Part shown: piece by piece, positions 55,078 to 56,058 of the stretch
Numbering within the stretch: the first letter of the stretch is position 1
Layout: the number at the start of each line of letters is the position of its first letter
From: a bacterium
Lineage (GTDB): Bacteria > UBA10199 > 2-02-FULL-50-16 > JAJFLM01
DNA length: 64,000 bases
NCBI GenBank assembly: GCA_965216315.1
Contig: CBDCFN010000015.1
Span: 32,001-96,000, forward strand
Reading direction: 5' to 3'
Position numbers and translations under genes: made by a program
The notes under the pieces: generated by a model
Databases searched by the model: none
What the model saw: only the letters and a program-made list of their open reading frames with translations
Told to the model about the DNA's origin: nothing

Positions 55078-56058
55078 ATGAATATCGCCGCCCTGCAGCA
55101 CATGGCCCGTATGTTTACCGGTGTCATTTTGCCCGGCCATACCCTTGGCGCCATTCAACAGCACAATGACATGCATCGGAGGACCCTGGGGATGGCGCTC
55201 CATGCCGGTCTGCAACCGACTCAGGCTCATCTGATTACGGTGAGCATACCGAATGACGTCGGGGTCGGTTTTCTGTTTCAAGAGGCCACTGACGGACTCA
55301 ATCAGGCCCAGTTGCTCTTGATCGGCCGCAGCCACCAACCCGAAGCCCTGCGCTTTCAGAATCCCATCCCCCAGGAACTCCATCGCATTTCTCTCATGTC
55401 CTACTTATCCGGACAAGATGAAGCACCACCCATTCATCAATATGCTGCGCTCGCTCATCTAACTCCAATGCTGCAGGCCGCTATCGGCGAAGCCGACATC
55501 GAGGCATTGCAAGCACAACTTTTTGATTATGCCCTGATGCCGAAACGTCCGCTCGGCGTCGTGCCTAGTATTGAGATGACACCAGGGCCTGCGTTGGAAA
55601 TCTTTGATACGCTGATCGACCATATTCAATTTCATGAGCAAAAAGGACTGAACACCCGGATCCGTCATGCCCTCACCGCACAGGGCATTCATTTTGTCGG
55701 TCAATTGGTGCGTCTGTCACCTTCCGCCTTGCCTGGAGGACAACAAACACGGCAAGCAATCTTGAATTATCTTCAGGCTCACGACTTGAGCCTCGGCATG
55801 GACAACCGGAACTGGCAAAAGCCGGGCCGCCACCACCGTGGCTTGATGCAAACACCGCTTACGTCTCTTTCGTTCACTTACGTAGGAGGGATGAATCAAG
55901 CGTTGCAACGACATCTCGTTAATGCCGGCGCAGTTACATTGGAAGATGTCCTGCACCTCAAGAAAACGGATCTCCTCAATAGGCCCTACTTTAATATTGG
56001 GCATTATGACACGATCCGAAATTTCCTGCGCTCACTCGGACTTGACTTTGACAAGTAG
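55078..56058 (+). CDS. Protein with two C-terminal RNA polymerase alpha-CTD-like domains
   Basis: LNTRIRHAL...GI..VGQLV...LSLGM and PL.SL...AG..TLEDVL.L...DLL....F....IR.FL..LGL both resemble the alpha-CTD pattern. Confidence 0.68.
   Translation: MNIAALQHMARMFTGVILPGHTLGAIQQHNDMHRRTLGMALHAGLQPTQAHLITVSIPNDVGVGFLFQEATDGLNQAQLLLIGRSHQPEALRFQNPIPQELHRISLMSYLSGQDEAPPIHQYAALAHLTPMLQAAIGEADIEALQAQLFDYALMPKRPLGVVPSIEMTPGPALEIFDTLIDHIQFHEQKGLNTRIRHALTAQGIHFVGQLVRLSPSALPGGQQTRQAILNYLQAHDLSLGMDNRNWQKPGRHHRGLMQTPLTSLSFTYVGGMNQALQRHLVNAGAVTLEDVLHLKKTDLLNRPYFNIGHYDTIRNFLRSLGLDFDK

Follow-up and report, generated by a model that had tools for sequence, protein, structure and literature searches.

What is the function of a protein that carries domains from the alpha subunit of RNA polymerase outside of the polymerase? 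The question is raised by an open reading frame at positions 55078..56058 (plus strand) of the window, the whole 64,000-nucleotide stretch of bacterial DNA analyzed here. The frame encodes a protein of 326 residues (P0001; C-terminal end IRNFLRSLGLDFDK) in which an orphan N-terminal domain is followed by two repeats derived from the alpha subunit's C-terminal domain (alpha-CTD). An earlier note on this DNA proposed that the protein is a decoy, with free alpha-CTDs occupying UP elements or soaking up class I activators of the CRP/OxyR type, in the producing cell or in a target cell.

Two repeats of alpha-CTD ancestry

Repeat 1 (55603..55827, plus strand; residues 176-250) matches the Pfam family RNA_pol_A_CTD (PF03118) at residues 191-218, where its 18.8 bits (E 0.0014) fall short of the 23.8-bit cut-off, and repeat 2 (55834..56055, plus strand; residues 253-326) taken alone has no Pfam alpha-CTD match. 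A PDB sequence search gave 13 matches at E<=10, each of them an alpha chain of RNA polymerase aligned to residues 190/191-247, with a best E of 0.042. Given the weakness of the Pfam and PDB matches, we built a custom profile from the non-RpoA alpha-CTDs of related genomes together with P0003-P0005; P0001 and P0002, its homologue, were excluded. This profile assigns 45.4 bits to repeat 1 and 16.9 bits to repeat 2, scores that were reached by 0 of 2000 shuffles in either case; over all 25,241 ORFs of the six-frame translated genome, it gave E values below 0.28 in the P0001 frame and in RpoA only, a normal rpoA being present elsewhere in the genome. Moreover, hhalign comparison of two-row repeat profiles with the RpoA CTD profile yielded probabilities of 97.0% (repeat 1) and 94.5% (repeat 2). 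Both repeats are of alpha-CTD ancestry.

Of the domain searches suggested in the earlier note, Pfam itself stays below threshold and the profile comparison returns a clear match. Of the two segments with an alpha-CTD pattern that the note had described, repeat 1 follows the pattern and shares the LSLGM...W..P end of the RpoA domain, whereas repeat 2, which has neither the R nor GI, VG.LV or LSLGM, fits it poorly and is recognized through profile and predicted fold. The accompanying remark that an alpha-NTD is missing was accurate, hhalign giving a probability of 0.2% when the NTDs of 101 RpoAs were compared with the two-row profile of the N-terminal part. P0001 has no match in NCBIfam and none at E<=1 among the Pfam TPR families, and P0002 has no Pfam match at 1e-4; another candidate, P0006, was dropped as a repeat artefact.

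The repeats are predicted to adopt a double helix-hairpin-helix fold. In a model of P0001 computed from a 16-row alignment, pLDDT is 86-97 in both repeats and 78-92 in the linker; single-sequence AlphaFold gave a pLDDT of 36.5 and was unusable. Solved alpha-CTDs are the best matches of modelled repeat 2, foremost 4mex_A, which superposes over 69 residues with Z 10.6 and rmsd 1.7 A, and the alpha-CTD structure matches of the model have Z scores of 10.6 and 10.4 with rmsd values of 1.7 and 1.5 A. The structural rows cover repeat 2, the assignment of repeat 1 resting on the profiles, and the predicted fold is partly circular because the rows supplied to the predictor were alpha-CTD-like. The structural check that had been proposed with AlphaFold and Foldseek is positive for repeat 2; for the whole model, Foldseek reached E<=0.001 in neither PDB nor BFVD, the top PDB ranks being alpha chains. 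P0001 shares with the RpoA alpha-CTD (PF03118; 4mex_A, 1z3e_B, 1lb2, 3k4g) the predicted fold and the core pattern, and differs from RpoA in having two copies of the domain and no alpha-NTD, in scoring under the Pfam cut-off, in the loss of most DNA and activator contacts, and in a family-specific insertion before helix 1.

An N-terminal domain with a single known homologue

The N-terminal domain (55078..55587, plus strand; residues 1-170; pLDDT 37-62) was found in P0001 and P0002 alone and is not an alpha-NTD; in a structure search its best Z was about 5, and no fold was assigned. Searching 1.84 billion representatives with P0001 produced 6 hits. P0002 (302 residues) is an end-to-end homologue with 25% identity and E 9e-24, in an alignment that takes in the N-terminal domain as well as the first residues. 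P0001, P0002 and the N-terminal alignment were used as queries of word-index searches, the last against longer proteins only, and gave just these two proteins; no further loci of either kind turned up in the metagenome and genome contigs searched, and neither protein was found in the protein atlas. The N-terminal profile matches 1 of the 93 genomes of the phylum, that of P0001 itself (the phylum set and the class set are the same 93 genomes). The P0001 frame is a real gene; a contig from a public run, which may be the source sample, spans 55011-56300 with zero differences.

Contact residues of the repeats

Within the alpha-CTD of RpoA, N294 and G296 are DNA contacts, and the 287 determinant for CRP AR1 consists of V287 and its neighbours. 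E. coli numbering was anchored on the PDB-search alignment and on residue numbers that we take to be correct, with RpoA positions 265, 268 and 269 fixed by the selection pattern of 101 RpoAs. According to the available parts of two reports (PMC1874639, PMC9178005), DNA is contacted by the 265 determinant (R265, N268, K298, S299), sigma region 4 by the 261 determinant, and CRP by the 287 determinant.

At R265, N268, N294, G296, K298 and S299, repeat 1 of P0001 has R, H, a gap, G, Q and T, and repeat 2 has A, R, Y, N, G and H; the corresponding residues of P0002 are Y, T, Q, G, G and G in repeat 1 and K, H, two gaps, S and R in repeat 2. The DNA-contact residues kept amount to 2/6 and 0/6 in the repeats of P0001 and 1/6 and 0/6 in those of P0002. 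Repeat 1 of P0001 also keeps G315 and has a conservative S299T exchange; its second hairpin carries a 4-residue deletion. In RpoA, N294, G296, K298, S299 and G315 are invariant (101/101), E286 is present in 98 and E288 in 100 of the 101 sequences; in place of these two glutamates, repeat 1 has P and A and repeat 2 has K and D, positions 285-289 reading SPSAL and KKTDL, respectively. Position 287 varies among the RpoAs and is S, as in repeat 1, in 19/101.

Since the contact residues are mostly lost, in P0002 as well, P0001 is unlikely to be a faithful decoy for UP elements or CRP, and we consider the titration of promoter elements or of CRP/OxyR-type activators, as proposed in the earlier note, an improbable function for this protein. 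The ancestry and predicted fold of the repeats suit such a role, as do the residues kept by repeat 1 (R265, G296, G315 and the S299T exchange) and the tolerance for S at position 287, and tandem copies could add avidity. Set against these features are the loss of N268, N294 and K298 from repeat 1 and of all six contacts from repeat 2, at positions of which N294, G296, K298 and S299 never vary in RpoA, the replacement of E286 and E288, and the equal wear of P0002. Several relatives retain 5-6 of the six DNA contacts and might act as decoys of this kind, and the proposal suits these faithful relatives better than P0001.

Loose DNA binding by repeat 1 is possible, judging from its composition: it is basic in both homologues (pI 10.2 and 10.8, against 6.5 for the RpoA CTD). 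Even non-specific binding is uncertain because repeat 1 of P0002 has Y at the R265 position and a G-P-G-G hairpin. Alternatively, the repeats of P0001, whether exported or resident, could have moved off DNA and classical activators altogether, with a remodelled surface that binds a protein partner or the other repeat. This possibility, which we regard as rather unlikely, is consistent with the residues shared by P0001 and P0002, mostly the core plus an I-x-F insertion rather than the DNA contacts, with the short insertion before helix 1 in both repeats, with the S-P helix start as part of such a surface, and with the pLDDT of the linker; however, two sequences cannot tell surface conservation from chance, and the strongly basic character of repeat 1 in both homologues speaks against it.

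Genomic neighborhood

As the earlier note stated, the gene directly follows rho (53363..54901, plus strand), which ends 176 bases 5' of the P0001 start. The adjacency is not conserved. The NAGPA (phosphodiester glycosidase) gene, which is convergent to the P0001 gene (56060..56782, minus strand), abuts rho directly in the relatives G016 and G030, another gene follows rho in G003, and the contigs of G001 and G002 reach their edge after rho. Because a P0001-type gene is absent 3' of rho in all three informative relatives, the adjacency is incidental, and a functional tie between P0001 and rho was rejected. The P0001 gene is an insertion that carries a promoter-like site of its own. No defence genes were seen adjoining it.

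Between rho and the promoter lie two multicopy intergenic repeats (54900..55040; 38 and 20 BLAST hits genome-wide). They are not linked to regulon genes, only 2/38 and 4/20 copies being within 300 bases of one, and RNA folding of the region is no better than that of shuffles (z -1.4). Rho itself has an N-terminal extension rich in Pro, Arg and Lys before Rho_N (53363-53650, plus strand), which is present in G003 and absent from G016 and G030.

A sigma-28-like promoter motif and its regulon

A promoter-like site with the motif (c/g)CAACTTT-N-gcCGATAA is located at 55044..55071 (plus strand; AGCAACTTT...ATCGAAGA), 6 bases 5' of the ATG. The motif stands out in an unbiased dyad count, where CAAC-N15-CCGA occurs 103 times in intergenic DNA against 9.2 expected. 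With a matrix built without it, the P0001 site scores 17.35 bits (18.9 with a two-box matrix), a score of at least 17.35 bits being found at 232 of 5.9 million positions compared to 1-5 with column-permuted matrices; the sigma-28-like motif noticed earlier upstream of the gene is thereby confirmed. Some 200-300 motif sites are present genome-wide, and 195 genes lie downstream of sites of at least 15 bits. A distance of 5-9 bases from box to ATG is the commonest class among these genes (60/195) and includes that of P0001; since the ATG follows the box so closely, a leaderless message is predicted.

The first 26 residues of P0001 (55078..55155, plus strand) form a low-charge N-terminus without a Sec-type n-region, which could be an export signal. 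Regulon proteins have a median of 1 charged residue among the first 25, against a median of 5 in 1305 other genes, and P0001, with 1 charged residue at positions 2-26, fits the regulon; its N-terminal composition score, which is reached by 7-8% of other genes, ranks in the regulon's lower third. Sec-like signals are present in 3 of 137 low-charge regulon N-termini, and neither a signal peptide nor a membrane segment is detectable in P0001. When regulon proteins are compared with paralogues outside the regulon, the N-terminal length differs by -23 to +172 residues in 9 usable pairs, with no consistent extension.

A Pfam scan at 1e-5 covered 103 of the 195 regulon proteins, namely the low-charge members within the retrieved DNA. 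No match was obtained for 75 of them; the 28 proteins with a match include GGDEF and RelA/SpoT proteins, a PAS histidine kinase, two adenylate cyclases, a Ser/Thr kinase, patatin, metabolic enzymes and two SF2 helicases. Ankyrin, LRR, F-box and U-box domains were absent from the 103 scanned proteins. The kinase, patatin and macro domains of the regulon would suit a eukaryotic host too.

Individual regulon members in the window include a CckA-like hybrid histidine kinase whose N-terminus carries little charge (13755-16013, minus strand), two motif-led genes without a Pfam or NCBIfam match (22941-23852 and 33735-35048, both plus strand), and a motif-led gene (40920-42053, minus strand) that resembles paralogues adjoining a patatin gene. 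On G000:C16, motif-led genes encode RelA/SpoT (L101:3068-4366), GGDEF (L104:1-3042), phosphofructokinase (L100:13128-14495), glutamate dehydrogenase (L110:15078-16487) and class V aminotransferase (L090:14270-15895) proteins, and in the last three the domain begins near residue 80. In one of the regulon helicases (L084:1-2994, minus strand; G000:C16:91477-94470; 998 residues), the SF2 helicase is joined to a sigma-70 region 4 that is RpoD-like (Pfam E 5e-16).

An expanded sigma-28-like regulon with a CCGATA -10 box is also known from Bdellovibrio bacteriovorus, where, according to the accessible text of PMC3627812, the FliA regulon has the motif TTAAG-N16-CCGATA and represents a whole attack-phase programme rather than an export list, a point repeated in the corresponding part of PMC11209729. 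The upstream box differs, being CAAC here and TTAAG in B. bacteriovorus (PMC3627812), and no flagellin was found in the P0001 genome.

A type III secretion cluster and the possible export of P0001

The genome encodes a non-flagellar type III secretion cluster (G000:C16:339-365 kb), whose export gate scores 806 bits as SctV (cut-off 692) against 698 as FlhA (cut-off 772) and which also holds SctN, a SctJ-like protein, SctL, SctO, SctP and SctR/T-like proteins. A FliA/WhiG-like sigma factor is encoded inside the cluster (133 bits, under the cut-off of 189.6), as are two sites of the motif. Secretin, needle and flagellin families were absent from the 44 of 52 cluster ORFs scanned, and flagellin and rod/hook families were not found in the genome, which is 98% complete. 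Two secretins are encoded outside the cluster, the short one at C16:16.6-17.4 kb among housekeeping genes and with no Tad cluster around it. FHIPEP is present in 91/93 genomes of the class.

A close parallel is the needle-less T3SS* of Myxococcus xanthus, which, as described in the available portion of PMC12075869, acts on bacterial prey and, like the cluster described here, combines a type III export apparatus and sorting platform without secretin, needle or flagellin families, here among the 44 of 52 ORFs scanned. No effectors of T3SS* are identified in that portion of the report (PMC12075869), whereas the P0001 genome has a sigma-28-like factor within the cluster and a large orphan regulon that offers candidate substrates.

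On these grounds, the reading that we tentatively prefer is that P0001 is an exported protein whose alpha-CTD folds would tether the N-terminal domain loosely to DNA instead of serving as a faithful decoy. In this scheme, the sigma-28-like factor of the type III cluster would transcribe the P0001 gene, given the presumed pairing of factor and motif, and the protein would be exported by the type III system into another bacterium, host or prey, with the low-charge N-terminus as the putative export signal. Once delivered, the basic repeat 1 might still bind DNA non-specifically, and the N-terminal domain would carry the activity. Bacteria as the probable targets are supported by the bacterial signalling parts of the regulon and its lack of ankyrin, LRR, F-box and U-box domains. 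The type III cluster and the regulon lend weight to the earlier note's suggestion of action in a target cell; for P0001, export itself is a candidate route.

A somewhat unlikely alternative is that P0001 stays in the producing cell as a stage-specific regulator that modulates the cell's own RNA polymerase or nucleoid in a host-seeking stage. Sigma-28-like regulons can be global stage programmes, as in the accessible account of Bdellovibrio (PMC3627812), many enzymes and regulators of this regulon are of cytoplasmic type, P0001 has no signal peptide or membrane segment, and the comparison of N-terminal lengths is mixed. However, a gene found in 1/93 genomes of the phylum does not resemble that of a core regulator, the regulon consists mostly of orphans with a common low-charge N-terminus, and the N-terminus is conserved in P0002.

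If P0001 and its kin are indeed exported, the alpha-CTD proteins would suggest that the targets are bacteria and that transcription is hijacked, beyond lysis, and they would be candidate cargo, open to testing, for a secretion system whose substrates in predatory bacteria are still in question.

Recurrence of alpha-CTD proteins in the phylum

The recurrence of alpha-CTDs outside RpoA across the phylum is a stronger result than the decoy reading of P0001. Non-RpoA PF03118 domains score above the cut-off in 16/93 genomes and at least 40 bits in 14/93 (translation-checked), compared to 6/94 and 1/94, respectively, in a control phylum that has a Geobacter record at its centre and was judged by score and frame length alone, one 95-bit second copy being counted as RpoA. 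The Fisher values of 0.024 and 0.0003 for these differences are overstated because kin are not independent. The proteins of the phylum fall into orphans that end in a single alpha-CTD, arrays in which the repeat occurs up to eight times, and six fusions of helicase-like type.

The motif could be scored for 15 of 20 such proteins, two having no upstream DNA and three falling outside the ORF filter; it is found 5' of 8/15 genes (in 6 genomes), compared to 19/118 neighbours and 95/697 genes of the P0001 genome. Of the 7 genes without a motif in the scanned window, one has a 28-bit site further upstream. The best domain keeps at least 4 of the 6 DNA contacts in 18/20 of the relatives' proteins and at least 5 in 12/20, although these domains were picked by Pfam hit, which favours faithful copies; the family background is therefore DNA binding. 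The P0001 domains, with 13-29% identity to the alpha-CTD of the genome's own RpoA against a class median of 39%, belong together with those of P0002 to the worn end of the phylum's alpha-CTD range. A tree of 65 domains was unresolved, with long branches, and no donor could be named.

Such divergence might be taken as a sign that P0001 is a decaying leftover of the large orphan pool of this lineage, with little present function. The repeats are the most diverged of the domains examined, on long branches, and the gene occurs in a single genome of the phylum; nevertheless, decay is very improbable given that frame and promoter are intact, that P0002 keeps the whole architecture at 25% identity, that the hydrophobic core is conserved and confidently modelled in both repeats, and that codon make-up is genome-like (GC3 0.57 against 0.56).

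With respect to known systems, PglW of type 2 BREX contains an alpha-CTD-like domain after its kinase, presumed in the available text of PMC12839542 to be a nucleic-acid-binding part, and thus resembles P0001 in the reuse of such a domain outside RNA polymerase. PglW is a defence protein of 1400-1600 residues encoded in a BREX operon (same part of PMC12839542), whereas P0001 is a 326-residue orphan with a regulon promoter. Phage proteins named as alpha-CTD are also listed in BFVD. Given these occurrences outside RpoA, the domain alone is not new. The survey that Iyer and Aravind made in 2012 of the transcription apparatus in bacteria may already list free alpha-CTD fusions. For this lineage, we found no description of the recruitment of alpha-CTDs into a secretion-linked regulon in the literature within reach, which mostly excluded subscription papers. 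The repeated recruitment of alpha-CTDs, along with sigma-70 region 4, to a regulon of sigma-28-like type with ties to a needle-less type III system, within one uncultured phylum, appears to be undescribed.

A broader reading, which we put forward as doubtful, is that this deltaproteobacterial phylum has repeatedly copied alpha-CTDs and sigma-70 region 4, alone or on SF2 helicases, into type III substrates that would enter bacterial hosts, seek out promoters and reprogram host transcription, P0001 being a far-diverged member of this arsenal. If true, it would define a new class of interbacterial effectors and supply the first list of candidate substrates for needle-less type III systems. Because its contact surfaces are worn, P0001 is a poorer test case than the faithful relatives in G018, G031 and G083.

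By their sequences, the alpha-CTD genes of G018 are the best candidates for a true decoy. This genome has four genes with well-kept alpha-CTDs, three of them in tandem (L045:4847-8704, on G018:C1; L046:5214-5999), and the motif precedes two; the protein encoded at L045:4847-5644 reads TEVELLKT, the same as E. coli. Helicase-like proteins encoded in the loci of six relatives carry 1-8 C-terminal alpha-CTD repeats, for example two of G088 with eight (L060:735-6365; 1877 residues) and four repeats (L059:2831-7837; 1669 residues). A protein of G084 (L052:4505-6142) joins an alpha-CTD to sigma-70 region 4 and HARE-HTH, has no motif upstream, and is probably of a mobile or defence type. In P0003 (475 residues), three alpha-CTD-like repeats are followed by IF2 N-terminal domains.
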